Source: a virus. Taken from it: DNA of 47,211 nt. Shown here one piece after another: positions 654 to 19,497 of this stretch (position 1 is the stretch's first letter; each line of letters opens with the position of its first letter). Below the pieces are notes generated by a model. That model had not been told where the DNA came from, made no database searches, and saw only the letters and a program-made list of their open reading frames with translations. The stretch covers positions 1 through 47,211 of IMG/VR virus record IMGVR_UViG_3300045988_007086; one strand, given 5' to 3'. The translations under genes and the position numbers were made by a program.

Positions 654-657
654 CTCG

Positions 658-1822: not shown

Positions 1823-1839
1823 CCTTCACATATGATAGT

Positions 1840-2706: not shown

Positions 2707-2732
2707 CCCATTTAGTAAAATTTAATATTCAG

Positions 2733-2965: not shown

Positions 2966-2974
2966 ACGCCCTCC

Positions 2975-3670: not shown

Positions 3671-3872
3671 TGGTTGCGCCTCCATCCACTGCATCCTGCA
3701 CCTTCTGGCTCTGCGTGCCGAAGTAGAACGCGATGATTACCGCGTAGATTGTCATGAAGTCCTGCGAGATCTTCTCGGCCACCGCCATGTAGGCGAACAC
3801 GCCCGTCAGAACCAGCGTCACAAGGCTCTTCACGCTCAGGAGATTCCCGAGCCGCTTGATGATCTTATCCAT
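3657..3872 (-). CDS. Holin (71 aa, two predicted TM segments)
   Basis: Trimmed to ATG 3872 with GGAGG upstream. Hydrophobic stretches SLVTLVLTGVFAYMAV and FMTIYAVIIAFYFG. Overlaps the endolysin start. Confidence 0.75.
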   Translation of the reverse strand: MDKIIKRLGNLLSVKSLVTLVLTGVFAYMAVAEKISQDFMTIYAVIIAFYFGTQSQKVQDAVDGGATNAGN

Positions 3873-4125
3873 CGTATGTACCTCCATCGTCTTTATCATT
3901 TGGTTTTGCAAATACTCTCTTGAGCAGGAGCAAAATCAGCTCCCCGCCGAAGGCCGCGCCCGCGAATACCAGCACATCCGAAAGGTCGCACGTCCTATCC
4001 AGCAGGACGGCGGCGGTTTTCAGGATCATCGCCCATGTGGCCACTGCCGTGAGCATCCACAGGCAGTAGTATACAAGCTCGCGGGCCATACGGCCCTTTG
4101 TCCATCGTTTCTTGTCTCTGCGCAT
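3865..4125 (-). CDS. Small membrane protein of the lysis cassette (86 aa, holin-like)
   Basis: Two hydrophobic helices. ATGA overlap with the upstream gene at 4125. Confidence 0.6.
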   Translation of the reverse strand: MRRDKKRWTKGRMARELVYYCLWMLTAVATWAMILKTAAVLLDRTCDLSDVLVFAGAAFGGELILLLLKRVFAKPNDKDDGGTYDG

Positions 4126-4517
4126 CAGCCCAGCCCCAGCTTCGCCAGCGCAAATCCAATCAGCCCTGCAAGGATCGCCGTGATAACTCCCTTTACGACC
4201 GCCTCCCAGCGGCTTCCCGGCAGCGCCTTGATGCTTTTCACATCGGCCTTGATCTCGTTCACGTTTTCCTCGATCGCCTCCTGCTTGGTCGCCAGCACCT
4301 CCACCGAGGTCGCCAGCTGATGCAGCGCCCTGTTGTCTGCCTCCAGCTCATCGATCCTGTGCGAGTTGCTCTTGCATCGCGCCTCCACGGAGGCGATCTG
4401 CGCCTGAATTCCATCATCCATCTTGATACTCCTTTCAAAGCTTTCTATTTCGCACTCCGGGCAAACCATCCTGCCCTCCGGCACGGCCCGTCCGCAGCAT
4501 ACGCAAGTATCCATCAC
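4125..4517 (-). CDS. XhlA-like lysis-associated protein with an N-terminal zinc ribbon (130 aa; alternative internal start at 4421 gives 98 aa)
   Basis: Coiled coil plus C-terminal TM (VVKGVITAILAGLIGFALAKLG), as in XhlA. N-terminus carries CVCCG...CPEC. Both ATG 4517 (GGAG upstream, ATGA-coupled) and ATG 4421 (AGGAG upstream) have an RBS. Confidence 0.6.
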   Translation of the reverse strand: MMDTCVCCGRAVPEGRMVCPECEIESFERSIKMDDGIQAQIASVEARCKSNSHRIDELEADNRALHQLATSVEVLATKQEAIEENVNEIKADVKSIKALPGSRWEAVVKGVITAILAGLIGFALAKLGLG

Positions 4518-6445
4518 CTGATCTCCTCATTGATCGTCGCAATTACCGCCGACGCATCCGTGCAGATCAGACTTACGCGGATGTAGTGCTCACCGGGTGC
4601 TGTTACCGTGACGATGTCTCCATTGCTGGCGAAATTGAGACTATTCCATGCATGTCCGTTGTATATGTAGCTTGTAGATACCAACGTTGCCGTTGCGCTG
4701 TACTCTGCTGCTGCACTTTTCCCATCATTCGCAGCGGGGAGACTCACACCCTTTATGCGAAGCGTATCGCCAGCCGAAAGGTGAATAAGGCTTGTTGCGT
4801 CCATATTTGCGCCGATTGTCGCCCATCCTACCTGCGCTTTGTTCGTGCCGCTCGATGTGCTCAGCCGCGTATCCGCAGATATGCCGACAGTATTGATGAT
4901 GTTTGTGATCTCTGCTGCACAGGTAATCACAATGTCGCCCAATACTTTTGGAATTGTGATCGTGCTGCCGGATACCACCGAAGCGGAAATGTCAACCCCG
5001 CGCATTGTGACAGTGATCGTGCCAAGCTTTTTGTATGTTCCCGTAGGCGTGAGCGTCGTAGTGTAGGCTGTGCCCTCGGCAATGCTGTCAGCCGTGTTGG
5101 AAGATGCACAGTTGGTGAGATTTAGCTTGATGTCGTAAGTCACAGACGGTGCAGAGGCCGCCGCAGTGATCGTGACTGCTCCCGTCACCTTTGCGATGTT
5201 GATTGCCCCACTACCTGCTGAATAAGCTGTAGATGTAATGTCCACGCCGCCCATTTTGATTACTACCGATGTGATTGTCTTTCCGCTTTCCGGCGTGATA
5301 GTCGCGGTGTACGCCTCGCCGTAATCCACCTGAGATGCACCGTTGCTGATCGTGCATCCTGTGAGATTTTTGGTGATGCTCTGATACCAGTGCAGCGTCT
5401 CTGGCGTTCCGTTGGTCATAGCCGCGCGGTAAGCGTTGATATCAGCCAGCGATATTCCGCATGTGCCAACCGCGAAGTGAACGCATTTGTCACGGAAGCT
5501 GTCACCGGAAACGGCCTTAATGGCATTGATAAGTCCAATCCACTCTGGTTCATTTCTCCGCCGCGCGAGGGCGTCCGTTCCCGAACCGGAATAAAATGTA
5601 GTCAACTCGTAGTCCTTGTCGATATTGCTCTGACTCATACCGAGCAGCCCTTCAAGCACACAAGCCAGCGTGCCGGTTCTGTCCGCGCCTGCCGTGCAAT
5701 GGAAATACACCGGCTCCCGGTGTGTCACCGCGTCAATCACGCACCGGAGGTAGAGCTGCCACGTTGCAACCGGCACCAGTGCGTAAGACGCTGCCTTGTC
5801 GGCAATCGTAAACCACACATCGCTGCCAAGCGGGGATTCCGTTGCAACATCGCCATCGGACGGATCGCGTCCCTCTTTGCCTCTGAGATCGATTTCATGC
5901 TGCACGCCGAGCTGGCCGACCAATACCGCCCGATCTGCGGCAGAGATACGCCCGCCTCGAATCAGCAGCCCGTATTTCACGGTGCCGCCGTCGCAGGCCC
6001 AGCCTCCCAGATCGCGCACATTCCACGCTTCTGCGGAGTTGTTGCGCGTGCGAATCCAGCGTAGCGCATCCAGCGGCTTGAGCGTCCCCGCAGCATTGTT
6101 CCCGGCAAATGGCGTGAGGACATTCGGCACTTCGTTGTAGTGCGTCACCCCGCCCGCCTCCTGCCCGATTGGCTTGTAGTTGCCCACAACTGCCGTCGCA
6201 GGCGCATAATTTGCAATCTGCGACGTGCTGTAATCAGCGGGATCGTATGTGACGTTTGCGAGGTAGTTTCGAACCAGCTCCGGGCATTGATGCCATTCTA
6301 AGGCTTCCACAGCGCCGGTCTCGATTGCCTGAATGGCAGACACAAACCCGGACGGGTACACCAGCTGCGCATCCGTGCCTCCCTTCGCTCGGATTGCGTC
6401 GGCGACAGCCGTCAGATCTGCCGTGTTTGTCAGGTATTCCGCCAT
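4514..6445 (-). CDS. Tail fibre / receptor-binding protein (643 aa) with an embedded tyrosine-phosphatase-like domain, two Ig-like repeats and a C-terminal domain
   Basis: Trimmed to ATG 6445 (ATGA overlap with the collagen fibre gene). Carries WNVRDLGG, then HCTAGADRTG (5672..5701), the CX5R P-loop. Two roughly 80-aa repeats at 4910..5389. It is the last structural gene before lysis. Confidence 0.8.
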   Translation of the reverse strand: MAEYLTNTADLTAVADAIRAKGGTDAQLVYPSGFVSAIQAIETGAVEALEWHQCPELVRNYLANVTYDPADYSTSQIANYAPATAVVGNYKPIGQEAGGVTHYNEVPNVLTPFAGNNAAGTLKPLDALRWIRTRNNSAEAWNVRDLGGWACDGGTVKYGLLIRGGRISAADRAVLVGQLGVQHEIDLRGKEGRDPSDGDVATESPLGSDVWFTIADKAASYALVPVATWQLYLRCVIDAVTHREPVYFHCTAGADRTGTLACVLEGLLGMSQSNIDKDYELTTFYSGSGTDALARRRNEPEWIGLINAIKAVSGDSFRDKCVHFAVGTCGISLADINAYRAAMTNGTPETLHWYQSITKNLTGCTISNGASQVDYGEAYTATITPESGKTITSVVIKMGGVDITSTAYSAGSGAINIAKVTGAVTITAAASAPSVTYDIKLNLTNCASSNTADSIAEGTAYTTTLTPTGTYKKLGTITVTMRGVDISASVVSGSTITIPKVLGDIVITCAAEITNIINTVGISADTRLSTSSGTNKAQVGWATIGANMDATSLIHLSAGDTLRIKGVSLPAANDGKSAAAEYSATATLVSTSYIYNGHAWNSLNFASNGDIVTVTAPGEHYIRVSLICTDASAVIATINEEIR

Positions 6446-7494
6446 CAGAAGCTCCCTCCATTCGCGTTTGCGATCTCTACAGCTGCCCATGCTCCATCCA
6501 CAACGCGCAGGAATTTCCCGTTATCAGCGGATGTAACAGATGGAACACCTTTTGGAATTTCCACGGTTTTCGCCGCGCTTCCGTCGTAGCTCGTTGTCGT
6601 ATCGCCGATCTTGATGTTGAGCGAATAAGGATTTTTGAGTTCCGTCGGAATCGTGGGGATATCGGACTCTTTCGCCAGCGTTCCGGCCCATGCCATCCAA
6701 GCGAACCCGTTGAATGCCACAACTAGATACATCGGTTTTTGCGTCGGATCGTTTGATCCAAGCGCTCCAAATCCAAGCACCACCAACCCGGAAACGCTTG
6801 CCGTGAGCGCAAGTGGAAGTGTGAATGGTCTGTCAGCATCGCTGAACTTTGCAATCGCATACACCGCATACCCTGCCGCATAGGCCGCATACACCTCCTC
6901 AGCCGTTTTGTCTGCGGTTGCGTTGTTGCCGTTTCCTTGCGTCACCGTCACATAAAACGCGCTCTTCGCTGCGCCAGTCGCGCCATTCACGCTTTTAACC
7001 GGCACATCATCCGCGCCGATGGGCGTGAACCCGAGCGCACCGACAACCGCATCCTTCGTGACATTCGCATTGTCCCCGTTTGCGCCCTTCGGAATTCCGA
7101 GGTTAAGCGTAGGCTGTGCGGCTGTTCCGCCCATGCTTGCCGTAGCCTCGCTTCCTGCGGGCAGCGTCGTCACCGTCCCTATCTTGATATCCGGCGTCAC
7201 GCCATCCTTACCGGGTGCTCCATCCTTGCCGGGTGCTCCATCCTCACCGGGTACTCCATCCTTGCCGGGGCTTCCGTCTTTGCCGGGAGCTCCGTCCGGG
7301 CCTGCGGGGCCTGTCGCACCCCTCGACGGCTTCCCGGTGTCCTCGTCTCCGAGATACCAGTTCCCGTTTGCTCCGATCGTCGGCGTAATGCCGTCCTTGC
7401 CGTCCTGCCCGGTGCCGCCGCCTCCGCCCGCCGGAATCTCATAGGTATCCGGAAGCCCCGGAAATGTAACTGATTTTAATGGTTTTTTCACCAA
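6445..7494 (-). CDS. Collagen-like (GXY repeat) tail fibre protein, 349 aa
   Basis: Contains GATGPAGPDGAPGKDGSPGKDGVPGEDGAPGKDGAPGKDG. TTG 7494 (or GTG 7491) after GGGAGGTG. Confidence 0.85.
   Translation of the reverse strand: MVKKPLKSVTFPGLPDTYEIPAGGGGGTGQDGKDGITPTIGANGNWYLGDEDTGKPSRGATGPAGPDGAPGKDGSPGKDGVPGEDGAPGKDGAPGKDGVTPDIKIGTVTTLPAGSEATASMGGTAAQPTLNLGIPKGANGDNANVTKDAVVGALGFTPIGADDVPVKSVNGATGAAKSAFYVTVTQGNGNNATADKTAEEVYAAYAAGYAVYAIAKFSDADRPFTLPLALTASVSGLVVLGFGALGSNDPTQKPMYLVVAFNGFAWMAWAGTLAKESDIPTIPTELKNPYSLNIKIGDTTTSYDGSAAKTVEIPKGVPSVTSADNGKFLRVVDGAWAAVEIANANGGSF
7195..7330. repeat. Tandem 9/18-bp repeats encoding the GXY triplets
   Basis: ccatccttgccgggtgct-type units are repeated. 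Confidence 0.8.
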
Positions 7495-8267
7495 CTGCCA
7501 CCTCCCAAAATCAGAATCTCATACGGCACACTTGCGAACGTCGCTGTGATTGTATTGGGCAGCGCAAACACTGCGCGTCCGCTGCTGTTGTATGCCACAC
7601 CGCCGTATGCGTACTTTTCCGCCTTTGCGCCGGTCGCGGTCATGGACATATACGCACTGAAATCTTCGCTGCAGAATGAACACACGACATTGTTTCCCGT
7701 GATCGTGCTTTTCGTGTAGACCAGCGCAAAGGACGGGGGACTTGCTTGGATCAGCTGCGTCTCCGCCTCGCTCAGCACCAGTGTTTTCTTGTCGATGGAT
7801 GCCTCCGCCGCCGTCATGGTCCTTTTGACGAGCACTGGGTACTGGACTCCCTTCACAAGCACCGACCCCAGCGCGTCATATGCCGCATCCTTCGTCACGG
7901 AGATATCCGAAGCGCCCGGTGTGACCGTCTTGCTCTGCAATTTCATTGCCTGAATGGTCTGTGCGCCCGCGAGATACTTCCCGGCGGGGATGGTCTGCGG
8001 CCGTGTGGACGGCGCATAGGCCGCCGCCGCGAGGCTTTCGATCTCACCCGTGACCTTTCCGCCGTTGACATACGCCGTGTACGGTTTGAGGATCTGTGCG
8101 GCGGTCGCCGTCGCATCGGAAATGTCCGGCCGCGGATCATAATGCCCGGCCTCCTCGGTCAGCTGCTCGATGGTTTTCTTTCCGGTAAACCCGAAGATCG
8201 TCCGCAGCGCCGACGCCAGCGCGTCGAGCTTGCTCTTTGTGACTACTACCTTATCGTTCTCAGCCAT
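7488..8267 (-). CDS. Virion structural protein, fibre/baseplate-associated (259 aa)
   Basis: ATG 8267. Lies between the two collagen-like genes and overlaps both neighbours. Confidence 0.7.
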   Translation of the reverse strand: MAENDKVVVTKSKLDALASALRTIFGFTGKKTIEQLTEEAGHYDPRPDISDATATAAQILKPYTAYVNGGKVTGEIESLAAAAYAPSTRPQTIPAGKYLAGAQTIQAMKLQSKTVTPGASDISVTKDAAYDALGSVLVKGVQYPVLVKRTMTAAEASIDKKTLVLSEAETQLIQASPPSFALVYTKSTITGNNVVCSFCSEDFSAYMSMTATGAKAEKYAYGGVAYNSSGRAVFALPNTITATFASVPYEILILGGGSW

Positions 8268-8856
8268 ATGTCGCCCCGTCTCCGTCCGGCAGCGCGGTCA
8301 ATACCGCCTGCACAAGCTCCGCCTTGTCGGCGGCCGTGAAATAATCCGTCCCCTTGACGGGCGTCTTGCCGTCCGCACCCTTCGCACCCGGGGCCCCTGT
8401 CTCGCCCGTAGCGCCCGCAGGCCCTTTGATGTTGACCGGCGTCGGATTCTCCAAGCCTCCGTCGTTCGTCCAGCTGATAACGCCCTCCGCGCTGACGGAC
8501 GGCGTGAACGTGTATCCGTTCTGCCCGCTCGTTCCGTCTCCTTCGGTCGTCAGCGCCCGGATGATGATGTTCCCGTTGCCGTCGTCCTCGACCACGGTCT
8601 GGAAGCTGTCTCCCTTCGGACCCGGACGGCCCTGCGGGCCGGTCGCGCCGTCCTTGCCGTCTGCGCCTGCGGGGCCTGGCGGCCCCTGCTTGCCCGTTGG
8701 GCCTGCCGGTCCCCGGATGTCTCCGAGATCAGCGGTGCTTCCGTCCGTCAGCGTAAAGATCAGATGCCCTTCGTCCGACACCGCCACAGCCTGGATGCCT
8801 CTGGAAATGAGGCCGTGGATCGTCACCATCACGCTTTCCGGAATTTCGATTTTCAT
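8260..8856 (-). CDS. Collagen-like (GXY repeat) fibre protein, 198 aa
   Basis: Two GXY runs: GPAGPTGKQGPPGPAGADGKDGATGPQGRPGPKGDS and GPAGATGETGAPGAKGADGKT. AAGGAGG upstream of ATG 8856. Confidence 0.85.
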   Translation of the reverse strand: MKIEIPESVMVTIHGLISRGIQAVAVSDEGHLIFTLTDGSTADLGDIRGPAGPTGKQGPPGPAGADGKDGATGPQGRPGPKGDSFQTVVEDDGNGNIIIRALTTEGDGTSGQNGYTFTPSVSAEGVISWTNDGGLENPTPVNIKGPAGATGETGAPGAKGADGKTPVKGTDYFTAADKAELVQAVLTALPDGDGATYG

Positions 8857-8868
8857 ACCCTCGCCTCC

Positions 8869-9225
8869 TTATTCCACACGCGCAATGTTCCCGCTCGCAA
8901 GCGTGGTACGGTTGCCGTGCGTGTATAAAATGTCGTACCGGTAGATTCCGCGCGGGAACTTGGCCGTCACCTCGTCCGTGAACGCCAGCGTTACCGTGTT
9001 CTCGTCCGCTCCGGTGAAGGAGAATTCCTGCACGGCCTTCTTTGTCCAGTCGTAGAATGTGACCTTGATCTTGTCCGTCTGCCCGATGGCCACGTCCGCG
9101 CCGTCCTGGTCCTCCAGCTCCAGCCGGAGCCGGAGGGAGAACGTATCTCCCTCATACCAGCAAATGCACCCGTTCGCAATGCGCGGGCTGACCCGCGCGC
9201 CGGGGATCGTGTTTGCCGCACTCAT
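8869..9225 (-). CDS. Hypothetical virion protein (118 aa)
   Basis: Trimmed to ATG 9225, which forms an ATGA overlap with the stop of the giant gene. Confidence 0.7.
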   Translation of the reverse strand: MSAANTIPGARVSPRIANGCICWYEGDTFSLRLRLELEDQDGADVAIGQTDKIKVTFYDWTKKAVQEFSFTGADENTVTLAFTDEVTAKFPRGIYRYDILYTHGNRTTLASGNIARVE

Positions 9226-12200
9226 TTCTTGTCTCCTTTCCTTTTGTTGGCCTCCCGCCGCCACTTGATGATGTTGTCCCGCGCCTTATCCGCATCGCCT
9301 CCGATAGCCTTGTACGCGCTGATGTAGGCATTCTTGAGCCGTGTCGCCTCGTCGCCGGTCGCCGCCAGCCACGCTTCCTTGAAGTGTTTTGTGAGCTGAG
9401 AGGACAGGTCGCCCTTGTCCACACCGTGCTTCATATACTCCTTGGCAACCTTCCGCGTATCGGCCAGCACGCCCTTGTCCACTGCGTCGAGGAACTGTCC
9501 GTACTTCTTCCAGCCCTCGCCGCCCTTCCACTCTTCGAGCGTCCAGTAAACGTCGTGTTCATCCTCCGCCCCGCAGTACTTTTGCAGATAGTCGGATACC
9601 TCGCTCTCTGGCATGGAGCCGCCCAAATAGTCCTCCTTGAGCTGACTTTTCAGGTCACTCTTCACGGCCTTTTCCGCATCCTCCTGCGCCTTTCCGTCCG
9701 CCACCTTCGCGCTGACGGCGTTCTGGTAAAAAGCATCCCATGTATCGCCGCCCGCTTTCAGCGCCTCCCTGTACCCGCTCCAAGGTTCAAATCCCGTTGC
9801 TGAGTAGTTTGCCGCCAGCAATGCCGACTTCTGACTCCCGGTCAACTCCATGCCGTCGAGGATACCCATCGCTTCGTCGCGCTTACTTCCGGAAATCGTC
9901 TTTCCGTCCGCGTCCTTCTCGCCCTCCACGTTCGCAGCCATCACTGAGTAGGCAATGCTTGCCGATTCCGGAACGCCGTTGTCGGCGAGTTTCTTAAACT
10001 TCTCAACATATGCGTCCGCTTCATAATCGTCGAACAGTACGCCCTTTGCCTGTTCCGCCGCATAGTCGTAGAGCTTCGCAAGCATTTTCGCCTGCTGATC
10101 GTCGCCCGCGCTCTGGAATGCATCAGACTGCACAAGTTCATTGAGGCTGTTTCTGACTGCCTCGCTCCACACCATGTCATATGTCTGCTTCTGATATGCC
10201 TTAAGCTCACGCTTTTCGTCGTGGATATTGACGGAGGACGGCGTGTCCGCCGGGGCCGCGTTCGCGTATCCTGCCTCGTACAGTCTTGCCACTGCCTGCA
10301 CGGCTTCGCTGCTCACATCTACATCCCGCACCTGAAACACGTGCTGCACACGCATCCGCAGCGCGTCTCCCGTCAGCCCTTTCAGCAGATTCCTGTTCGC
10401 CGTCTGCATTGCATCGTCATACGCCGTTCCAAGCGCAGGGGATACCGTCTTGACCGTCCCGAGAATATACGTCTCCAGATTGTTTGCCGGAAGCGAAAAC
10501 CCATATGTGGCGATCTCCTTTGCCAGATTCCGGATGTCTCCGAGCATATCGTTCCCGTACCGTTTCAGGTAAAGTGTCAAATCTCCCTTGTTCTTAATCA
10601 GGTCTGCTCCGTCCGTCACGAACTTGTTGATGTTTTTCCCGTGCGTGTCTATCAGCTCCAGCACTTTGTTGAGCTGCTCCACGCTCTGCGAGTTGAAAAT
10701 GTCATAGAATCGCTCTCCCGACAATGTGCCGCCGATCAGTTCCACGACCTCTTCTCCGCCAATCGACGCGGCTCCCGCGATGCTGGAAAGCAGATCCTCT
10801 CCCATGCCTTTCAGTACGCTCAGCGCCGTCAGGTTCCCGTCGTCGTCTCTGTATTTCTTGTCTCTGTGCTTCAATAGCGCCATGAGGAACGTTACCGCCG
10901 TAGACCATATATAGCCGCCCGCTGCGGAAACGAACGCCTGCCCGACGCGGCGGTTTGCGCGGCGCTGCACTTCGATGGATGCTCCGCTGCGCTTGTAGTA
11001 CTGCGCCTCTCCGATCGCCTGACGTACCGTGTTGTATACCTGCGCCGAGTCCGAACGGAACATGGTGACTGCTTTCGCCAGCGCATTCTTGCTCTTGCGC
11101 AGCCTGCCTTGGTGCATTTCATCGGATGTAGACTGGCTTCGCGCCACAGCGTCGTTGAAGCGCTCTGCGACCTTCTGATAAAACGGGCTTTGCCCTGCGT
11201 CGATCTGTTCCTGCGTCCCGATTTCCAGCTCCGGGTTTTCTCTTCGCACGGCGTTTTCTGCCCACGGCCACAGCGTGCTTGCTGCCCATCCGTCCATGGC
11301 TGTGATCGCGCCGCCTCCGAACGCAAAGTTCAACACTTTGTTGTTCTGAATCTTTGTCGGATGATCCTTGAGCTGCTTTGTCTCCGGCGTCGCGTAGCCC
11401 ATGAGCCGGTAATCGAGCATCTTGGTATACTTTGAGATCAGCGTTCTGTCGATCTGTGCGATTTGCTTCGGGCTTGGCGTGTTCTCCGCGCCGAGATAAG
11501 CCGCTGCCAGGGGAATGGAGCCTGCCTGCTTGAACACGATAGACGGATTGAATCCGAACGTCGCCGCAATGTAGTTGCTGAATATCTTGTCTGCGGCAGT
11601 CGTTACAAAGTCCTGTTCACTGCTTCCGCCCGCCTCCAGCTTTGTAAGCTGATCCATGATGTATTTTTCTGTTACCTCGCCCCATTTCCCGTCGATCACG
11701 GTTTTCATGGATGTCGTGCTTCCGCGCCAGTTGAGCAGTGTTTTCCAGTTCCGCGCCGGGATCGCCATTCCTACGAAGCGTGACGTCTGGCTGACGTTCC
11801 GCTCGAAAGCGTCGTAAGCGCCGATGTTGTATGTCGGATTCTTGGACACCTGCCGCGTCTTGAGGTTTCCGACGCCCTCTGCCGTCGCGTCATAGATTCC
11901 CGGCTCACTCTTCGTGAAGCTGCTGTTCGTGAAGATCGGCGCATAGTTTTTCCCCATGGCCTTGTCGTATCCATACAGAATGTTAGATACACGGTTGATC
12001 TCGCTCTTTGCGTATCCGTTGTAATACCTGTCCAGCACGTCCGCCAGCGCCTTTTCCTCAACGGTCAGGTCGGAAACGATCGCCTTTACCGTCTCCGGCG
12101 CAAGCTTGACCGTAGTCCCTTGCGCGAACGCCTCCTGCCGCTTTCCCTTGCTGTAAAGCTCCCGGTTTGCGAATGTGCGGCCGCCCGCCATGTGGCGGAG

Positions 12201-15200
12201 ATTATCGTAGTTCCTGCTTTCCAGATACATGTGTACCTTCTGTGCTGGTGTCATGTATACCGTGACGGTTTTCCCGAAGATCGGTTTGTCTCCCATGCCC
12301 AGCTCCAGCAGCTCCGGCACCTTGATCTCGTACCAGATCGCATCCTTGCCCTGTCCATCCGACCGCATGACCCATTCCCGGTTTTTCTGCATGAAGTCCT
12401 TCAAGATCTGTGCCGCCGTGACCTGATACGACTGCGCATCGCGTTCGCCCTTCTCCAGCTGCTTCGCCATGCCGTACCATGTGCTGTTGGGATTCCACCC
12501 CGCCATGCGTTCCAGCACGTTCATGGTGCTCAGCTGCTCCATGTTCATAAATCGATCTGTCAGTTTTCCCGTGTATCCGCCCGCTGCGCTGTTGATCTCC
12601 CGCACCGAATCTGCATAAACGTCCTCGAATATGCGCTCTTCCGCGTCCCCAAGCACCCGGTTCCGGTTCGCAAACTCTGTCCGCAGCTCTACCGCCGCCT
12701 GATACAGCTTTCCCAGCGCGTCCAGATCCATGTCCCCGATCTTTCTCGCGTCCAGTCTCGTTACGATGCGCTCAAGCTCCTTTGACGGTAGGAAGTTCGG
12801 GTCGTTTGCTTTCGCATCCTGGTACATCTGCGCCAAATCCCGCCACGTCGCGTTGTACTTTCCAGACCACTGCATTTCGTTTGCAGTGCCGACGGCGTAA
12901 AGATCAATATCACTCAGCACCTCGTCGAACTGCTCACGCAGCTCCTCCGGCGCACGGAAGCGATTCTTGTTGAGCCATTGCAGTGTCTTGAGCGTCTTCT
13001 TCTGAAGCTCCTGAAGCTCCCTTCGCGCCTTCTGCCGCGCGGCCATATCCTTTCGGTCTTGCCGTTCCAGCGCCCTGCGGTTTGCCTCTCTGGCCTTCTC
13101 GCGCTGTATCCTCTCGTCGATCCGCGCCTCCATCGCGTCAATAAGCTTTCCCTTGCTCTTGGCGAGTGCGGCATCCTTCTTCTGCAGCCGTTCATCCGTG
13201 CGGGCCTCCATCGCTTCAATGAGCTTCTGCCTGCTTCTGTCCGTCGCTGCGTCTTTCTTCTGTAGCCGTTCATCCGTGCGGGCCTCCATGGCCTCGATCA
13301 CGCCCGCATTGTTCTGCGATCTCTGCGCATTGCGTTGTGCCGATCTGTCCCGTTCTGCCTCAATGGCCGCCGTCTTGTCGCCCCGAAGCTTCACCTCAAG
13401 CTTTGCCTTTTCGGCGAAAGTCCGCATCGCCCAGTCCAGCTGCCGCTCCATGTTTTCAAGGATCGCATCGTCCGATACAAAATCCTTTCCGGCCAGCGCC
13501 TGCGCGTACTCAGACAGGCTCAGATTCTGATCCTGCGCTTCCTCCGCTGCCTGCACGATCTGCTCCAGCTTTTGCCTCTGGCTCCCGCCGGTCTCGCTGA
13601 ACGTGTCAGGTGCCGCCTCAGACAGTGCCTGTGTCCACGCTTCGGCGCTCCGGTCTGCGGTGCTGTCTGTGAGATAGATCCCGGCCTCGAACGCTCGTTT
13701 GCGGAAGTCGTTCCATTCGCTTCCGAATTCCCGCCTCGCGCGTTCGCTGACATAGAGCCGCCCATCTCCCACGATATCCGGCACAGCGTCCGGCTGCTGC
13801 CGCAGGCTCTCCATCATCGCCCCGGAGGAATAAAGCCTGGCGAGGAACACATCGCGGTCTGTCTGCGTCAGCTCTCCGTTTGTGTAAATGCGGTCTGCAA
13901 AATAATCGATCACGCGTCCAACATCCGTCCGCTGTGTTTTCGATACGGAGAACATTTTGAACAGCGTGCTTTTCAGCTCCCGCTGTGCAATGGTCGGTAG
14001 ATTGACCCGTTCCGACCGCCTCTTGTCCTCCTGACCGTCAGCCGCCTCTGTAACCGAAAATTTTTCTTGACTTTTCTGCTCTGTTCTGCGTATACTGGGT
14101 TCAGAGACGGATGCAGTGTTTCTGTTGGTTCCCGGTGACGGGTTCTCAGCTTTCGCTGCATCGGTCTCTTTTTCTGTGAAAGAGGTTGGCTGCAGATTTA
14201 GAATGTCGTACAGCAACATGCTTCCGCTTTCCCGTGTGCCTACTACCACTTCCGCCGTGTAGCCGTTTCCACCCACGCGCAGCAGCACATTGCCTCTCGC
14301 AAAGTCTGCGATTTTGTCCTTGCGTGGATGGTTCAGCCCTTCGTTCACCCAGTCCGTTGTTGCGCGCAGGATTTCGTCTGCATTGTCCGTGGCGCGCAGT
14401 TTGTCCGCCCGCAGCTGCGGGTCGTTGTTGTAGAGCCACTGCATATACCGCGAGAATGTCATCTCCTGACGGCTCTGATAGTCAATATTGATCTCGTTGT
14501 TCCCCACAGTGATGCCGTTGGGGAACTTTTTCTTCAGGTTCTCCTTGATGGTCTTCACCCAGTCCGCTTCCGGCACGCCCGCGAGGATGTCCTGTTCCAC
14601 CTCCACGAACGGCTTGTTGTCCGTGGTCTTTCCGATGCTATACTTCTCCGGCGGGCCTCGTGTCCCGCCGGTTTTTTCCGCCGTCTGAGCTGTCGTTCGC
14701 AGCTCTGCCGCCTCCCGGACGGTCTGCTGATACTGCTCCGCGTGGGTGCCGAATGCGTTGATTCCCGCATAAGCGTCCGCATAGATCTCTTCCTTGATGG
14801 CATTCAGCGCTTCGTCGAATTCCGCGTCCGTCCCCTCTGTCGGCACGTCATTGACACCGCGCCGGGAACGAATGTATGTCTCGACGATTTGGTCAAATTC
14901 TTCCTCGCTGAACGTATCCCGAATGTGCTGTTCGATCTGCGCATTCAGTCCCGGCGTGTTGTCTGCGATCCAGTGGTATGTCTCATGAGATGCCAGTTGG
15001 TCAATAGTCGCCCGAAGGTTGTCCGCCTGAACGATGATCCTGTCTCCGGTGAACACCGCCGCTGCGCGCGCTGTGCCGCCGTTTGACGTTCTGACCTGCA
15101 AAGGCCCGAGCACATATGTCGTCTCAAGTCCTGTCCGTTGCTTGACTCTCGCCGCAGTCTCTTTCATGCCTGCATCCCAATTTTCCCGCATAAAAACCGT

Positions 15201-18200
15201 GTTGCCGCGATAGCCCGTCCCACGGCTCACCCCAAGCTCGACGGTGCTTACTTTCGGGAGCCGAAGATCTCTTGCACGATTCTGTCTTTCAACTGCTGTT
15301 CTGCTTTGCTGAGCGGCCGCGTTTGTTTTTCCTGTCCTGCCTGCCACTGCTCCAAACGGCTTTCCGGCACGTCGATCAGACTCCCGTCTCGATCCTCCAT
15401 CAGGTACGACGTTTTCTTGCTGCTCTTCAAGTCTTACCGCTCCTTTCTTGTTTGTCTCCTGCACCGGTGCTTCTTCCTGTGTCGCGGTCTGTTCGGCCTG
15501 CTTTGGCCCCGGAAGCGTCGTCTCCCGTGCCAGCTCTTCTGTCTCCTGAACCGCCTGACTTGCCGCCTGTGCAGGTGCCGGCTTCGGTGCTTCTGCTTCC
15601 TGCGTGATCTGCTGTTGCTCCGCTCTTGAAGGCTTCTGCATTTGCTGCGTTTCTGTGCCGCCCGGGATCAGCTCCAGCGCCGCTTGGATCGCTTCCAGCG
15701 TTGCGTCTCGCGTGTATCCGCTCAGCTCCGTGCTTGCCTTTGCCTGCGCCGCTTCGAATATCTCCCGTGTTTCCTGTGTCAGGATGCGCGCTTCTTCCTC
15801 GTTCTCTACAGTCAGTGTACTCAAGTACGAGTTTATAAACCGACTGTTTAGCCAGTTCATCATATAAGCAATGTCCACCGCAGTCCCACTGTTGATCCCG
15901 TATCTGTCTGTATAGTCCCGCTCTATCTGCTTTGTTCTTTTTGCAAACTGCTCGTTTGCGTTGCTCCAGCTTCCAAATATCTCGTCTCTTCGTTCCGGCT
16001 CCAGTGAAAACACTCTGTCTTTTTTTGCTTGCGCCTGCTCGTATTTTGTGAGCTGTGGTTCCTTGTTGAAGTCGATTTCCCGCGTCTCTGCTCGCCGTCC
16101 GGCGTCTGCTTGCGTTCTCTTCCCGGTCTGCGTCTGTACATTCTGTACTTCCTGCACGGCCTGTGTGGTCTGCGCCGGTGTCTGCTGCTGCCTTTCCGCT
16201 TCCTGAACGGCCTGTGCGGGTGCTTGCTGGCGGGCCTCTCTTGCCGCCTGCCGCGCATCCCGCTCATCCGCATACTGGTTGTACGTCTGAAAAGCCGCCT
16301 CGGCCTGCGCGGCCTGATCGGCTTTGACCGCCGAATTCACAACTGCCTGCACCTCTGCCGTCTCCGGCATCTGACCGGCCTTTACCTTGTCCATGACCGC
16401 CTGCGCAGCCTCTGCGGTCGCCTGATCCCCGCGCTCCTTTGCCATCGACTCCACTGCGTCCATGACCTGTCCGATCACGTTCAGCTGTTTGCCCCTGTTG
16501 CGTGCCTCCACGGCCTTGTTCGTTCCTGCGTATGCTCCGGACATGGCAAGACCGGAAATGCCGCCCGCGAGGAACGAAAGCCCGTCCTCTTTCAGCATGT
16601 CTCCCAGCGTCAGCGCAAGCGCCTTTTCCTTTGTATTGCCCTTTGAAAGATACTCCGCATACGCGCCCATGACCTCGCCCCGGTCGTGCTTTGCCACAAC
16701 GTCGTAGATTCGGTTGAGCCAGTTGGAGGCGATCTCTTCCGCGCCCTCGGACGCGAACGCCCGCATCACTTTCTTCCACACCTGCTTTCCGCTGAGCATG
16801 GTCTTGATCTTGTCGCCCACAGAGTATTTCTCCGTTAAGCCCTCGATTGCGCCCTCAACAATGCCGTCAATAAGCGCCTCCTGATTGGATTTGCCGCTCT
16901 GAATTCCCGCATACACGGAATCCGCCGCGACCTGCGACCCCATCACCCAGTTCATCGTCTCTGCCACCGCCGAGGACGCCGCTTCTCCGCTGAGTCCCGT
17001 CGTTCCGACGATTGCGGTCGATGCGGCCATGTTGACCGCGCTGTCCAGCGCGGATGTTCCTGCCTGATACAAAAACTGTCCGACCGGCCCCATGCCCTCC
17101 ATGACGCCGCTGCGGATGCCGCTCGACTCGTGCGTTGCGAAATACAGTGGGCTGTAGATGTTTGTCGGCATGTCCTCGTTCTGGTATCCGCCGAGCCACT
17201 TCGGCAGAATGCCGCGAAGCGATTCGATGTTTCCGAGTGCCTTGAACGGGGCGAGCAGGGAAGAAGCGACGGTCGATGTGACCGGCGCGTCTTGGCCGAA
17301 CTTCCGCGCGCTTTGCGACCGCTTCTGGTAATCCTCGAAGTCCTCCAGATACTTTTCGTATTCTGCCAGCCGTTTGATCTGATCGTATGAGTATCCCTTC
17401 TGCCGAAGCTTCCATTCTGCTCCTTCGTTGTCTGCCAGGTATCCGGTCTTGTTGTATTCCCGCAGAAGCTCCCGTGTCTCCTCATCCAGCGCGCCGATCG
17501 TGTTCTCCGCCTGCCCCAGTGCGCGTGCGGAATCCAGCGCCGCTTTTCTGGTCTCCAGCGTGTCGATCTCGCTCTGTATGTCCCTGACCCCTCGAGCCTG
17601 CCTGCGCGTCCCGTTCTCATCGGTGTACCAAGCCGTCCCGTTCTCGTCAAACTGATAGTCTCGGAAATGCTCGTCGGATTTCTGCTCATATAGCTGATCC
17701 AGTTGCTTCTGTATCTCTGCCGAAGTCCGCTTCATGCCGCGCAGCTGATCCGGAAGGACCGTCTCCCTGTATCGCTTTTCCTGCTCCGCAGCCCGTCTTT
17801 CCAGCTCCCCGTCGAACTGATTCAGACCGATCAGGCGGCTATAGTCCTGCCCGGCATTCGTCGCCGCCTGCTGGGCCGCCGTTCCGGTCTGCACCTTGCG
17901 CTGAAACTGTAGATACTTCTGAATATCCTGTGCCGCCTGTACGCGCGGCTGCATATCCCCGTCGAGCTGATTCAGGCCGAGCATGCGGCTGTAGTCCCGC
18001 TTCTGGCTTCCGCCCGCCTGCTGGGCAGCCGTGCCGACGGATACCCTGCGTGGGAATTCCGTCTGCTTCTGGTACTCCGCGACATACTGCTTGTACTGCT
18101 GATACGCTGCCTCATAGCTCTGCGGCGTCGCTTTCTTGGTGTTCGTCCGGTAATCCGGATTATACGGGCCGTTCGTGACGTTCTGCCTGCCGCCGCTTGC

Positions 18201-18350
18201 CTCATACTCCCGCAGAGCATCAAGCCCGCTGCGCCACGTTCCGCCGGAGCTGCCTGCGTTTCCCGTCTGCTGGTTTCCGCTCTGCGTCTGCCGTCCGCTC
18301 CGCGCCTCATACTCCCGCAGAGCATCAAGCCCTGTGCGTTTCTTTGCCAT
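9222..18350 (-). CDS. Giant multidomain virion (internal/ejection, polyvalent-type) protein, 3,042 aa
   Basis: Uninterrupted 9,129-nt ORF. ATG 18350 after AAGGAG. Contains an HExxH motif (HETYH, 14973..14987), internal tandem repeats, and long helical/Q-rich linkers. Sits between head-completion genes and fibres. Confidence 0.9.
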   Translation of the reverse strand: MAKKRTGLDALREYEARSGRQTQSGNQQTGNAGSSGGTWRSGLDALREYEASGGRQNVTNGPYNPDYRTNTKKATPQSYEAAYQQYKQYVAEYQKQTEFPRRVSVGTAAQQAGGSQKRDYSRMLGLNQLDGDMQPRVQAAQDIQKYLQFQRKVQTGTAAQQAATNAGQDYSRLIGLNQFDGELERRAAEQEKRYRETVLPDQLRGMKRTSAEIQKQLDQLYEQKSDEHFRDYQFDENGTAWYTDENGTRRQARGVRDIQSEIDTLETRKAALDSARALGQAENTIGALDEETRELLREYNKTGYLADNEGAEWKLRQKGYSYDQIKRLAEYEKYLEDFEDYQKRSQSARKFGQDAPVTSTVASSLLAPFKALGNIESLRGILPKWLGGYQNEDMPTNIYSPLYFATHESSGIRSGVMEGMGPVGQFLYQAGTSALDSAVNMAASTAIVGTTGLSGEAASSAVAETMNWVMGSQVAADSVYAGIQSGKSNQEALIDGIVEGAIEGLTEKYSVGDKIKTMLSGKQVWKKVMRAFASEGAEEIASNWLNRIYDVVAKHDRGEVMGAYAEYLSKGNTKEKALALTLGDMLKEDGLSFLAGGISGLAMSGAYAGTNKAVEARNRGKQLNVIGQVMDAVESMAKERGDQATAEAAQAVMDKVKAGQMPETAEVQAVVNSAVKADQAAQAEAAFQTYNQYADERDARQAAREARQQAPAQAVQEAERQQQTPAQTTQAVQEVQNVQTQTGKRTQADAGRRAETREIDFNKEPQLTKYEQAQAKKDRVFSLEPERRDEIFGSWSNANEQFAKRTKQIERDYTDRYGINSGTAVDIAYMMNWLNSRFINSYLSTLTVENEEEARILTQETREIFEAAQAKASTELSGYTRDATLEAIQAALELIPGGTETQQMQKPSRAEQQQITQEAEAPKPAPAQAASQAVQETEELARETTLPGPKQAEQTATQEEAPVQETNKKGAVRLEEQQENVVPDGGSRRESDRRAGKPFGAVAGRTGKTNAAAQQSRTAVERQNRARDLRLPKVSTVELGVSRGTGYRGNTVFMRENWDAGMKETAARVKQRTGLETTYVLGPLQVRTSNGGTARAAAVFTGDRIIVQADNLRATIDQLASHETYHWIADNTPGLNAQIEQHIRDTFSEEEFDQIVETYIRSRRGVNDVPTEGTDAEFDEALNAIKEEIYADAYAGINAFGTHAEQYQQTVREAAELRTTAQTAEKTGGTRGPPEKYSIGKTTDNKPFVEVEQDILAGVPEADWVKTIKENLKKKFPNGITVGNNEINIDYQSRQEMTFSRYMQWLYNNDPQLRADKLRATDNADEILRATTDWVNEGLNHPRKDKIADFARGNVLLRVGGNGYTAEVVVGTRESGSMLLYDILNLQPTSFTEKETDAAKAENPSPGTNRNTASVSEPSIRRTEQKSQEKFSVTEAADGQEDKRRSERVNLPTIAQRELKSTLFKMFSVSKTQRTDVGRVIDYFADRIYTNGELTQTDRDVFLARLYSSGAMMESLRQQPDAVPDIVGDGRLYVSERARREFGSEWNDFRKRAFEAGIYLTDSTADRSAEAWTQALSEAAPDTFSETGGSQRQKLEQIVQAAEEAQDQNLSLSEYAQALAGKDFVSDDAILENMERQLDWAMRTFAEKAKLEVKLRGDKTAAIEAERDRSAQRNAQRSQNNAGVIEAMEARTDERLQKKDAATDRSRQKLIEAMEARTDERLQKKDAALAKSKGKLIDAMEARIDERIQREKAREANRRALERQDRKDMAARQKARRELQELQKKTLKTLQWLNKNRFRAPEELREQFDEVLSDIDLYAVGTANEMQWSGKYNATWRDLAQMYQDAKANDPNFLPSKELERIVTRLDARKIGDMDLDALGKLYQAAVELRTEFANRNRVLGDAEERIFEDVYADSVREINSAAGGYTGKLTDRFMNMEQLSTMNVLERMAGWNPNSTWYGMAKQLEKGERDAQSYQVTAAQILKDFMQKNREWVMRSDGQGKDAIWYEIKVPELLELGMGDKPIFGKTVTVYMTPAQKVHMYLESRNYDNLRHMAGGRTFANRELYSKGKRQEAFAQGTTVKLAPETVKAIVSDLTVEEKALADVLDRYYNGYAKSEINRVSNILYGYDKAMGKNYAPIFTNSSFTKSEPGIYDATAEGVGNLKTRQVSKNPTYNIGAYDAFERNVSQTSRFVGMAIPARNWKTLLNWRGSTTSMKTVIDGKWGEVTEKYIMDQLTKLEAGGSSEQDFVTTAADKIFSNYIAATFGFNPSIVFKQAGSIPLAAAYLGAENTPSPKQIAQIDRTLISKYTKMLDYRLMGYATPETKQLKDHPTKIQNNKVLNFAFGGGAITAMDGWAASTLWPWAENAVRRENPELEIGTQEQIDAGQSPFYQKVAERFNDAVARSQSTSDEMHQGRLRKSKNALAKAVTMFRSDSAQVYNTVRQAIGEAQYYKRSGASIEVQRRANRRVGQAFVSAAGGYIWSTAVTFLMALLKHRDKKYRDDDGNLTALSVLKGMGEDLLSSIAGAASIGGEEVVELIGGTLSGERFYDIFNSQSVEQLNKVLELIDTHGKNINKFVTDGADLIKNKGDLTLYLKRYGNDMLGDIRNLAKEIATYGFSLPANNLETYILGTVKTVSPALGTAYDDAMQTANRNLLKGLTGDALRMRVQHVFQVRDVDVSSEAVQAVARLYEAGYANAAPADTPSSVNIHDEKRELKAYQKQTYDMVWSEAVRNSLNELVQSDAFQSAGDDQQAKMLAKLYDYAAEQAKGVLFDDYEADAYVEKFKKLADNGVPESASIAYSVMAANVEGEKDADGKTISGSKRDEAMGILDGMELTGSQKSALLAANYSATGFEPWSGYREALKAGGDTWDAFYQNAVSAKVADGKAQEDAEKAVKSDLKSQLKEDYLGGSMPESEVSDYLQKYCGAEDEHDVYWTLEEWKGGEGWKKYGQFLDAVDKGVLADTRKVAKEYMKHGVDKGDLSSQLTKHFKEAWLAATGDEATRLKNAYISAYKAIGGDADKARDNIIKWRREANKRKGDKK
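13090..13325. repeat. Three tandem 78-bp (26-aa) repeats inside the giant gene
   Basis: IEAMEARTDERLQKKDAATDRSRQKL / IEAMEARTDERLQKKDAALAKSKGKL / IDAMEARIDERIQREKAREA. The gcctccat landmark recurs at 13133, 13211 and 13289. Confidence 0.85.
18200..18332. repeat. Two exact 28-bp repeats 105 bp apart at the 5' end of the giant gene
   Basis: cctcatactcccgcagagcatcaagccc at 18200..18227 and 18305..18332. Each encodes GLDALREYEA. Confidence 0.85.
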
Positions 18351-18360
18351 ATTGAACTCC

Positions 18361-19497
18361 TTATTCCTTCGGGATTCCGTAGCCCGCCTTGTTCAGGATG
18401 CTGACCAGCTCGTTATACTGCTTCTTTCCGGTCGAATTGCTCAGATTGAGTTGACCCGCCATACTCAAAAACAGGTCGTATGCCTTTTCCGGCTGTCCCG
18501 CCATGATCCACTCGGTCATGCCGCGCTTGAGCTGGTTGTACGTCTGTGCCATTGCACCGCCCGCACCGCCGCTGTTGTAGGTGTTGTCGATATACCCCTT
18601 TCCGCTTCCGGTTCCGGAGCTGCCCGCTCTTCCGCCTCCGCTGCCGCCGCTTCCACCTGCGGCCCTCTGCTGCGACTGCCAATAGGCCTGCTCCTGCGCA
18701 GCCTTCTGCTGCCAGTAGCTGAGCTGATCCGACCACTGTGTGTAATCTTTGTTCCACTCGGAGTCGTAGGAGCTCCGCGCGTCGGCAAGGTCATTGTAGT
18801 AGTCCGATACCGTGTCCCGGTACTTGCTGTAGTCCATGCTCTCCCGGTCGCTCACGAGGCCGTACCGGTTGTAGAGATCCTGCCCCTCGTCCTGATACCG
18901 GCCATACGCCCGGTCGTAGAGTTCCGGCACAATGTCGTTCAGGCTCTGGAGGTATGCGTTGTATGTCTGCTGCCCGACCTGCTCCGCGTAGGTCGAGCCG
19001 TAGCCGCCCGTGAGGCTGGCCGCCTGACCCATCGTGTCCTGCATGGCCGTCCTGCCGAGTCGCTGATACTGCTCCTTGTACTGCTGATACAGCGCGTCCT
19101 GGTTGAGATCGTACTGGAACGGCTTGCGGTTGGTGATCTGGTCGTACAGGCTGTCCAGCTCCGCATCCCACCGCGACTGATACGCGCCCGGCCTCCGGCT
19201 CTGCACCTGCTGGAGGTATGCCTTCGCCTGCGACACCGCGCCGGAAGGGGAGTAGCCCCTTTCGAGATTCCCGAGTCTGCCCGCCGTGTAGTCGGAATAG
19301 CCCGGCAGCGTGTTCCGCGTGGAATAGCCGCCCTTGTAGTTCTGCGTGGTCTGGCCCTTGTTTACGAGCGTGGACTTGTACTGTCCGTCCGCACCCACGC
19401 TGTCGATGCGGTAAGTACCGCCAGCCGTGACCACCTCGTCGCCGACACCAAGCCCGGACGGCGCACGGCCGTCGTCATTTACTCTGTACAGTGCCAT
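18361..19497 (-). CDS. Y/Q/D-rich low-complexity virion protein (378 aa)
   Basis: ATG 19497 after AAGGAGG. Contains a GGSGGSGGGRAGSSGTGSG tract and many YxxY/QQ motifs. Confidence 0.75.
   Translation of the reverse strand: MALYRVNDDGRAPSGLGVGDEVVTAGGTYRIDSVGADGQYKSTLVNKGQTTQNYKGGYSTRNTLPGYSDYTAGRLGNLERGYSPSGAVSQAKAYLQQVQSRRPGAYQSRWDAELDSLYDQITNRKPFQYDLNQDALYQQYKEQYQRLGRTAMQDTMGQAASLTGGYGSTYAEQVGQQTYNAYLQSLNDIVPELYDRAYGRYQDEGQDLYNRYGLVSDRESMDYSKYRDTVSDYYNDLADARSSYDSEWNKDYTQWSDQLSYWQQKAAQEQAYWQSQQRAAGGSGGSGGGRAGSSGTGSGKGYIDNTYNSGGAGGAMAQTYNQLKRGMTEWIMAGQPEKAYDLFLSMAGQLNLSNSTGKKQYNELVSILNKAGYGIPKE

Follow-up and report, generated by a model that had tools for sequence, protein, structure and literature searches.

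The polyvalent proteins of phages were delineated in 2017 by Iyer, Burroughs, Anand, de Souza and Aravind, who argued from gene context and MuF fusions that these proteins are packaged and injected, found a zincin-like peptidase to be their commonest hub domain and reported a metallopeptidase domain in the N4 virion RNA polymerase gp50 (PMC5512222). In 2024, 8-kb open reading frames (ORFs) with similarity to LPD3, occupying approximately 20% of the phi1 and phi4 prophage genomes of Clostridium clostridioforme LM41, were interpreted as polyvalent (PMC11318856), and in 2026 gp47 of phi24B, a polyvalent protein of 2,811 amino acids (aa), was found to be abundant in the virion proteome of this podovirus and absent from its cryo-electron microscopy (cryo-EM) map; the authors proposed an ejection protein housed inside the capsid, and considered its storage and expulsion an open question (bioRxiv 10.64898/2026.04.10.717836). 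Giant polyvalent proteins are common in phage genomes and experimentally almost unstudied. Here, we describe a giant gene in IMG/VR virus record IMGVR_UViG_3300045988_007086, of which the whole stretch of 47,211 nucleotides (nt), hereafter the window, was analysed. Its product combines a family-defining N-domain ('TEKYS' domain), a zincin-like metallopeptidase domain, an exchangeable cassette and a helical C-module; its membership in the polyvalent class is supported, and we consider it probable that it is an encapsidated and ejected scaffold able to carry effectors. The class as such, comparable 8-kb ORFs and the virion association of an analogous giant were thus already known; what is added here is a map of the modules, the extent of the N-domain family, the recognition that the C-module is a shared scaffold with a divergent form, and exact boundaries of the cassette.

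The giant gene is a single uninterrupted frame encoding 3,042 aa (338.8 kDa, pI 5.6) and takes up 9,129 of the 42,779 bp of a temperate phage genome, that is 21.3%. An earlier note on this DNA, made from the sequence alone, had already described the ORF, its good ribosome-binding site (RBS) and its translational coupling to the next gene; all of these were confirmed, and the location on the minus strand is the sole addition. The RBS lies 7 nt before the ATG and overlaps the TAA stop codon of the upstream 378-aa ORF, from which the giant ORF is separated by a gap of 10 nt, while its own stop codon overlaps the ATG that opens the next ORF, of 118 aa (ATGA, 9222-9225), the gene being in this way coupled on both sides within the late, structural operon. 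Only one of the 3,042 residues is a cysteine, against about 2% in other ORFs, and the neighbouring virion proteins are as Cys-poor as the giant. Intact orthologues of 2,950-3,050 aa (75-98% identity) fall into more than 50 protein clusters from independent assemblies, samples and assemblers, several of them on contigs of 42-46 kb; one orthologue of 75% identity recurs on at least 16 contigs, the gene order being the same in all. Interruption of the frame in independent assemblies, which according to the earlier note would speak for an assembly fusion, was therefore not what the orthologues display. On some contigs parts of the giant do appear as separate ORFs, as expected if assembly or gene calling had fused several genes, but most of these fragments merely run into the end of a contig, the full-length frame recurs in clusters from different samples and assemblers, and internal start sites are absent at the junctions, so that the probability of an artefact is next to negligible. 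Indeed, no RBS with an in-frame start was detected at any module junction, and consequently separate products would need proteolysis. Apparent stand-alone C-module genes of about 1,000 aa were likewise mostly ORFs truncated at contig ends, the real separate genes being P0128 and P0173 (probably also P0125). In an Oscillibacter sp. metagenome-assembled genome (MAG; GCA_014799795.1, positions 6285-12988 of the locus), the giant is represented by two neighbouring ORFs, 1,064 and 995 aa long, at one border of a prophage, which may be a split or decaying copy. At the DNA level, the giant gene had no match among 50,697 phage records.

The assignment to the polyvalent class is supported by catalogue domains in alleles of the same gene. 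Alleles of this locus reach the Pfam thresholds for ART-PolyVal, MuF_C, PBECR5, LPD23 and LPD3: allele P0100 combines MuF_C and ART-PolyVal (ART 71.8 bits), P0113 harbors LPD23 (72 bits), LPD3 and PBECR5 (192 bits), and P0074 harbors LPD23 and LPD3. The N-domain, zincin block, C-module and C-terminal tail of the giant are shared with P0100, P0113 and P0182 (ART 125 bits), and alleles with MuF_C and ART-PolyVal occupy this locus in genomes that are 96% identical in the rest of their sequence. Likewise, seven of 13 distant relatives carry ART-PolyVal and four PBECR5, others among them having LPD23, MuF_C, LPD38, PBECR3, a C5 DNA methylase or a putative metallopeptidase. With regard to the combination of unrelated activities, this allele itself offers only a zincin-like and a sub-threshold LPD3-like domain; in the same-locus alleles and seven of the 13 relatives the peptidase is joined to ART, RNase or methylase domains. 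Like the proteins catalogued by Iyer et al. (PMC5512222), the giant is a multi-module protein with a zincin-like HExxH hub, is encoded beside late, virion genes of a portal-terminase phage, has homologues with catalogue domains above curated thresholds (sister alleles with ART-PolyVal, MuF_C, PBECR3/5 and LPD3/23/38) and displays extensive mosaicism, as in their Helicobacter jhp1044 example. The suggestion of the earlier note that the protein is closer to polyvalent proteins than to a conventional tape measure is therefore supported by these alleles, as well as by neighbouring genes without tail-tube families. The LM41 ORFs resemble the giant in being single ORFs of about 20% of a gut-Firmicute prophage genome with weak LPD3 similarity; they were mentioned in passing without dissection, and the likeness is drawn from the published description only (PMC11318856).

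The comparison by BLAST with homologues, and by blastn with two sister genomes, divides the protein into eight parts (Table 1). Compositional features that the earlier note had listed are all present in this map, and its proposal that homologues would separate conserved from swappable modules proved fruitful: the N-domain, C-module and C-terminal tail are kept and the slot at aa 1241-1428 is exchanged, the map thereby separating a conserved scaffold from an exchangeable slot.

Table 1. Position of the giant gene, its modules and adjoining features in the window
Feature	Window position	Strand	Description
Giant ORF	9222..18350	-	Intact orthologues in >50 independent clusters; same gene order in L012, L013 and L014
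Ribosome-binding site AAGGAG	18357..18362	-	7 nt before the giant ATG; overlaps TAA stop of the 378-aa ORF
Polar N-terminal region, aa 1-300	17451..18350	-	Duplicated motifs; specific to the close clade
Family-defining 'TEKYS' N-domain, aa 310-735	16146..17423	-	Gly/Ala/Ser-rich, predicted helical
Q/A/E/P-rich linker, aa 736-1013	15312..16145	-	Varies between lineages; predicted largely disordered
Zincin-like metallopeptidase domain, aa 1014-1240	14631..15311	-	H1122-E1123-x-x-H1126 and E1188/D1192 (EEIYADAYAG); ends GPPEKYSI (aa 1232-1240)
Exchangeable cassette, aa 1241-1428, LPD3-like	14067..14630	-	Bounded by EKYSI (aa 1236-1240) and EKFSV (aa 1430-1434)
Middle region, aa 1429-1780	13011..14066	-	Charged coiled segment; travels with the C-module
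Three 26-aa tandem repeats, aa 1685-1762	13065..13298	-	I(E/D)AMEAR(T/I)DER(L/I)Q(K/R)...; sequence scan, Tandem Repeats Finder
C-module ('chassis') of about 1,000 aa, aa 1781-2836	9843..13010	-	Mostly helical; AlphaFold, Foldseek, iterative searches
C-terminal tail domain, aa 2837-3042	9225..9842	-	66-84% identity in all close lineages, regardless of the middle
118-aa ORF, phrog_1084, translationally coupled	8869..9225	-	Always directly after the giant gene
Two conserved ORFs, 378 and 422 aa	18361..20943	-	No family match; positional candidates for adaptor/nozzle proteins

The C-terminal half, which the earlier note could not assign, turned out to be a conserved module common to many giant phage proteins. 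In iterative searches the core of the C-module (aa ~1910-2450, highly conserved) was found in 71 of 116 distant proteins with the N-domain, and 14 more display an alternative C-region of the type of P0057, none having both. We had considered that the C-module was replaced wholesale in the lineages with ART and MuF_C, an idea that was dropped, as hhalign identified their C-region as one of its distant homologues (probability 96.5%, E=8e-10). The AlphaFold model obtained with 34 homologues (predicted local distance difference test, pLDDT, 76.6; predicted template modelling score, pTM, 0.67) is mostly helical with one small sheet, and a hydrophobic helix is located at aa 2474-2492. Upon comparison with a viral structure library by Foldseek, 79 significant matches were obtained, the best one with E=7e-28 and a template modelling (TM) score of 0.54, over about 1,100 columns at 11-18% identity. 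Among the 50 matches listed, all but two are the second or third chunks of giant phage proteins, annotated among others as PolyVal ART, MuF_C, nuclease, LPD, acetyltransferase or kinase. A 'structural protein' of Tenacibaculum phage Gundel_1, which transmission electron microscopy (TEM) showed to be a podovirus, is also among the matches. Against the PDB no structural neighbour was found (best E=0.3, TM <0.1), and the top non-significant matches, to multi-pass helical transporters and alpha-solenoids, were not counted as evidence. Neither the C-module nor the N-domain matches a Pfam model, and PDB sequence searches with the whole protein, the C-module profile and the N-domain profile returned nothing significant. 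The C-terminal half is a conserved scaffold, and not cargo unique to this phage. The middle region accompanies the C-module both in the P0113 group and in versions encoded as separate genes, and 27 of the 116 distant relatives have it; the three tandem repeats that the earlier note had seen begin at aa 1685, 1711 and 1737, and Tandem Repeats Finder reports a period of 78 nt and 2.1 copies at 13126-13289. A gene of its own (1,541-1,634 aa) encodes the C-module in two other temperate gut phages (L004 and L005). In L005, a different element, the gene of 1,541 aa (within 3713-14626) comes after a capsid gene and ORFs of 125 aa, 506 aa (a collagen protein) and 124 aa, with a rolling-circle Rep upstream, an integrase downstream and few other recognisable virion genes in the stretch seen.

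At the other end of the protein, an exhaustive HMMER search with aa 1-740 recovered 623 representative clusters at E<=1e-3, of which 287 reached E<=1e-10; with few exceptions the proteins measure 2,000-4,362 aa and have the match (query aa ~310-735) close to the N-terminus. This family alone comprises hundreds of clusters at 50% identity, mostly from gut metagenomes; its members in bacterial genome bins all belong to Oscillospiraceae or Clostridiales MAGs, and one homologue resides inside an Oscillibacter prophage. The hallmarks of the N-domain in the alignment and logo are G-x-I-E-G-(L/I)-T-E-K-(Y/F)-S-(I/V), A-E-G-S-E-E...A-S-N and F-L-A-G-G-L-S-G, which read here G-x-I-E-G-L-T-E-K-Y-S-V (aa ~500-511), SEGAEE...ASN (aa ~534-544) and FLAGGISG (aa ~593-600). 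No match was found in Pfam, NCBIfam or PDB, and AlphaFold predicts helices at very low confidence (25-45). The content in Gly, Ala and Ser is 42% at aa 401-500, hydrophobicity peaks at aa 590-608, and Q, A and E make up 42-45% of aa 601-800 and 901-1000, in accordance with the Gly/Ala/Ser-rich hydrophobic stretches and Q/A/E-rich linkers of the earlier description. The duplicated modules that it reported upstream were located as well, GLDALREYEA at aa 7 and 42 and DYSR(M/L)(L/I)GLNQ(L/F)DG at aa 125 and 175. This region (aa 1-300) is present in four of the 116 distant relatives and otherwise conserved only in the close clade. A function of these motifs as a common capsid-targeting signal was rejected, since they are found in no other ORF of this genome.

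The globular region with HExxH recognised in the earlier note contains the only such motif of the protein, HETYH at aa 1122, and is the one confident part (pLDDT 77-88) of the AlphaFold model of aa 330-1450. In 19 copies with 15-32% identity the sole invariant residues other than Gly are H1122, E1123, H1126 and E1188, the latter located 62 residues further on, and D1192 is nearly invariant. The predicted order of elements is a helix, a five-stranded sheet, the HExxH helix and a later helix bearing the Glu; an HExxH helix and a downstream Glu helix on a helix/sheet/helix core fit a zincin-like domain, and the modelled domain appears to follow the gluzincin pattern. No curated peptidase model was reached: individual members gave sub-threshold matches only, three of the ten weak ones being to metallopeptidase families, and a search of the PDB sequences with the zincin profile returned nothing significant. 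Foldseek with the model of aa 330-1450 gave no match, zincins included, a result that is uninformative for the zincin fold because most of this model is of low confidence. In the ART/MuF_C lineages (relatives P0057-P0112), the position of aa 1122-1126 is occupied by HALFH, which lacks the catalytic Glu but retains the two His residues; the EE..AD helix further downstream is retained as well, and the peptidase of these lineages may be inactive or repurposed.

The exchange of the segment that follows the zincin domain is visible at the DNA level. The genome L012 is about 96% identical by blastn except for aa 89-679 and aa 1241-1426 of the giant and for the receptor-binding region (82%), and the break at aa 1241-1426 is bounded exactly by the EKYSI and EKFSV motifs. 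The genome L014 is 96.6% identical over 12.8 kb up to aa 946, displays no nucleotide similarity between aa 946 and aa 2922, and is 94% identical afterwards. Protein-level breakpoints in the alleles P0020 and P0032 fall at the same places, and other alleles hold a different cassette in the slot at aa 1241-1428, one of them containing LPD23. In phages that are otherwise 96% identical, the giant gene is one of two loci seen to be swapped, the other being the receptor-binding region, a pattern as expected of an arms-race gene. The giant contains three copies of the strict motif [EQ][KR][YF]S[IVLYFM], where 0.07 would be expected, and none of 2,000 shuffles reached three; both copies at the junctions lie in predicted disordered linkers. 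Across the 116 distant relatives 68 occurrences were observed and 8.6 expected, the excess being due almost wholly to the invariant copy in the N-domain. A family-wide cleavage signal was for this reason rejected, and the junction copies are clade-specific cassette boundaries; that they might be cleavage sites as well is speculation. The N-domain sequence TEKYS(V/I) at 16821-16835 (aa 506-510) resembles both PEKYSI at 14634-14648 (aa 1235-1239) and QEKFSV at 14052-14066 (aa 1429-1433), all on the minus strand; the three may share a recognition site, mark cleavage sites or be recombination joints.

The phage itself was placed by its virion genes. The window consists of a genome of 42,779 bp plus an exact wrap-around of 4,432 bp (1-4432 = 42780-47211; 4432/4432 identical). 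The overall order is TerS, TerL, portal, major capsid protein, further genes, giant, fibres and lysis genes, and in the orthologous genomes L012, L013 and L014 it reads TerL, 584 aa, portal, 300 aa, capsid protein, 76-82 aa, 151 aa, 422 aa, 66 aa, 378 aa, giant, 118 aa and collagen-like fibre. The capsid protein belongs to the N4-gp56 family, as the earlier note had proposed (TIGR04387, 253 bits with a cutoff of 60), and the portal of the orthologous genomes matches P22_portal and SU10_portal in Pfam. The closest cultured relatives of the capsid are the Bacillus megaterium podophages Page and Pony and the Alteromonas AD45 phages, and the capsid and portal PHROGs are also those of the podovirus AP-20-A. 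Scans of the neighbours with PHROGs, Pfam and NCBIfam revealed no tube, sheath, G/GT chaperone, tape-measure, Dit or Tal family, in agreement with the absence of tail tube, sheath and chaperone genes first remarked in the earlier note. Based on the capsid and portal lineage and on the failure to find tail-tube genes, we infer, with good support, a short-tailed morphology. These observations bear on the proposal that the giant is the tape-measure protein of a long-tailed phage. Its gene follows the head genes and precedes the fibre genes, and long helical stretches with Gly/Ala/Ser-rich hydrophobic segments are found in many tape measures. Nevertheless, the scans detected no tube, sheath, chaperone, Dit or Tal family in its neighbours, the gap to the upstream ORF is only 10 nt, the capsid and portal are of the N4-gp56 and P22/SU10 types, and at about 1.5 Å per residue 3,042 aa would imply a tail of about 450 nm. 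Furthermore, it contains compact globular modules (the C-module and the zincin domain) in place of an extended collinear ruler, and its interior is replaced by non-collinear modules, with lengths from 2,637 to 3,671 aa among close relatives. We therefore regard a tape measure as highly improbable.

In contrast, several lines of evidence point to an encapsidated and ejected protein. The giant gene is located between the candidate adaptor/nozzle genes and the fibre genes and is coupled on both sides, the protein displays the cysteine depletion of virion proteins, and its helical and disordered make-up is suited to passage through a narrow channel. The ejection-protein genes of T7 (genes 14-16) and P22 (genes 7, 20 and 16) are found at the same relative place, between tail or adaptor and fibre genes of short-tailed phages, and encode helical, conformationally flexible proteins for which the same role is proposed; unlike the giant, these are several small or medium proteins, in phages of Gram-negative hosts. 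The class-level argument of Iyer et al. and the precedent of phi24B gp47 point in the same direction, the latter being also a polyvalent-type protein of about 2,800 aa from a temperate short-tailed phage and the only close analogue with virion proteomics. From this evidence we infer packaging, ejection, proteolysis and a role in crossing the envelope, and hypothesize that the polypeptide would be made late in infection together with the virion proteins, that a few copies would be packed in the capsid of a temperate phage that has a short tail and infects gut Oscillospiraceae, and that they would be expelled through the portal and tail at the onset of infection, ahead of or along with the DNA. 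The scaffold, composed of the TEKYS N-domain and the helical C-module with its C-terminal tail, would carry the packaging and ejection functions and may help the DNA across the Gram-positive envelope, host manipulation being assigned to the exchangeable slot. In sister phages the segment that follows the zincin domain carries host-directed effectors (ADP-ribosyltransferase, BECR-type RNases, MuF_C, LPD23), and the slot of this allele an LPD3-like domain only. The peptidase probably cuts the polypeptide in the disordered linkers, either after delivery or inside the capsid. As no effector enzyme is recognisable in this allele, the scaffold may perform the essential function; the earlier note, which had called the delivered item unknown, is in part corrected, since what is delivered may be mainly the scaffold.

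The same note had compared the giant with the N4 virion RNA polymerase. Like the giant as proposed here, gp50 (~3,500 aa) is an encapsidated and ejected protein, and it belongs to a phage with the same capsid-protein family; there is no homology, and the relation is one of analogy only. The giant displays neither sequence nor fold similarity to gp50, and no single-subunit RNA polymerase domain was detected by PDB sequence search, Pfam or NCBIfam, nor by Foldseek, applied here to aa 1780-2840 only (9pnt, E=2.9, TM 0.06).

Several observations weigh against the giant being an ejected polyvalent scaffold. Unlike the described polyvalent proteins, this allele has no catalogue domain above the curated thresholds in Pfam, its TEKYS N-domain and C-module lie outside Pfam, and neither a second recognisable enzyme nor an effector enzyme was found. 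The cassette scores 17.0 bits with Pfam LPD3 (PF18798) in the whole protein and 21.4 bits as an isolated segment (profile positions 5-111 of 114), below the gathering threshold of 27, and is accordingly called LPD3-like only; membership by transitivity could not be shown either, as hhalign against true LPD3 gave E=0.1. Homology to phi24B gp47 and to Page_20 was rejected by BLAST, unfiltered hidden Markov models (HMMs) and hhalign, neither the N-domain nor the C-module being detectably related to gp47, so that this precedent is an analogy only; in addition gp47 contains LPD1, LPD5, LPD38 and MuF-C, comes from a phage of a Gram-negative host and is encoded at the far end of the late region. Towards T7- and P22-type core proteins there is no sequence or fold similarity in the PDB sequence search and both Foldseek searches, and gene position is the only likeness to them that those searches left standing. 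The short tail is itself predicted from the capsid and portal lineage and the missing tail-tube families, and the 422-aa and 378-aa ORFs have no family match. The matches of the C-module in the viral library include records labelled Myoviridae and Siphoviridae sp.; these labels are on uncultured records and unreliable, and if correct the C-module is not specific to short tails. Moreover, the HALFH of the ART/MuF_C lineages means that self-processing by the HExxH domain cannot be universal, and in L004 the separate C-module gene follows the lysis genes and lies beside the integrase, a position less typical of a structural gene.

The L004 arrangement, which resembles that of a moron, would rather suit a cytoplasmic or prophage-expressed conflict protein acting in anti-defence or superinfection exclusion, located in the late region by chance and absent from the virion, and Iyer et al. 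noted that host-captured polyvalent proteins may act defensively (PMC5512222). However, the giant gene is coupled inside the structural operon in every assembly examined, its cysteine depletion equals that of virion proteins, and late expression would come too late to help the infection that produces it; we find this explanation quite improbable. Gene position is also compatible with an external component of the virion, such as a tail hub, a plug, a needle or a cell-wall-penetrating tail protein of a Gram-positive phage, because the gene lies among, and is coupled to, tail and fibre genes, and the 422-aa, 378-aa and 118-aa neighbours could form a tail complex with the giant. Likewise, the metallopeptidase could act on peptidoglycan cross-links, as suggested for gp47 by the phi24B authors (bioRxiv 10.64898/2026.04.10.717836). 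Yet the protein is almost entirely helical or disordered, with no beta-helix, Ig-like, collagen or other fibre-type repeats, and its relatives carry cytoplasm-directed ADP-ribosyltransferases, RNases and a DNA methylase, sensible only if delivered into the cell. The free exchange of the interior while neighbours remain 96% identical is also hard to reconcile with a tightly fitted tail part, and we consider an external component unlikely.

Returning to the encapsidated scaffold, a bolder form of this proposal, which we put forward tentatively and ourselves regard as doubtful, is that N-domain and C-module constitute a previously unnamed, very widespread 'ejection chassis' of phages, especially those of Gram-positive gut bacteria, on which effectors are optional cassettes exchanged at (P/Q)-E-K-(Y/F)-S-(I/V), with these motifs perhaps being sites of the zincin. 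If so, the linker motifs would mark DNA recombination breakpoints, and the effector-poor allele would show that the chassis itself gets DNA across the envelope. An ejection device of this kind would help to explain how short-tailed phages cross the Gram-positive envelope, and how a capsid can store and expel a protein of 340 kDa.

Other features of the genome are described here for completeness. It is circular or permuted, and ORFs inside the duplicated ends of the window are listed twice. Nearly all genes are on the minus strand and GC skew is negative over the whole window; the tyrosine integrase (41694-42734, +) runs opposite to nearly all others. The temperate character of the phage is indicated by this integrase, together with a rolling-circle-type Rep, a DNA methylase and a Holliday-junction resolvase, and the genome combines the integrase with a rolling-circle-type replication initiator (29863-30609, -) and a radical-SAM protein (35381-36283, -). 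Between terminase and portal, a 617-aa ORF (25734-27587, -; 584 aa in orthologues) matches phrog_511, 'internal virion protein', and may encode a second encapsidated protein; with 14 cysteines it differs from the other virion proteins, and about 100 nt of its reading frame are shared with the TerL ORF. Two ORFs with collagen triple-helix repeats that lie downstream of the giant (8260-8856 and 6445-7494, both -) are probably tail fibres. The receptor-binding region, the second variable locus beside the giant gene, harbors a 658-aa ORF (4514-6490, -) in which a tyrosine phosphatase domain (Y_phosphatase3) scores 85 bits and Big_12, an Ig-like family, matches weakly; other proteins are found at this position in sister genomes, for instance a 618-aa Big_2 protein and, next to it, a 774-aa ORF with a weak match to GDSL lipases.

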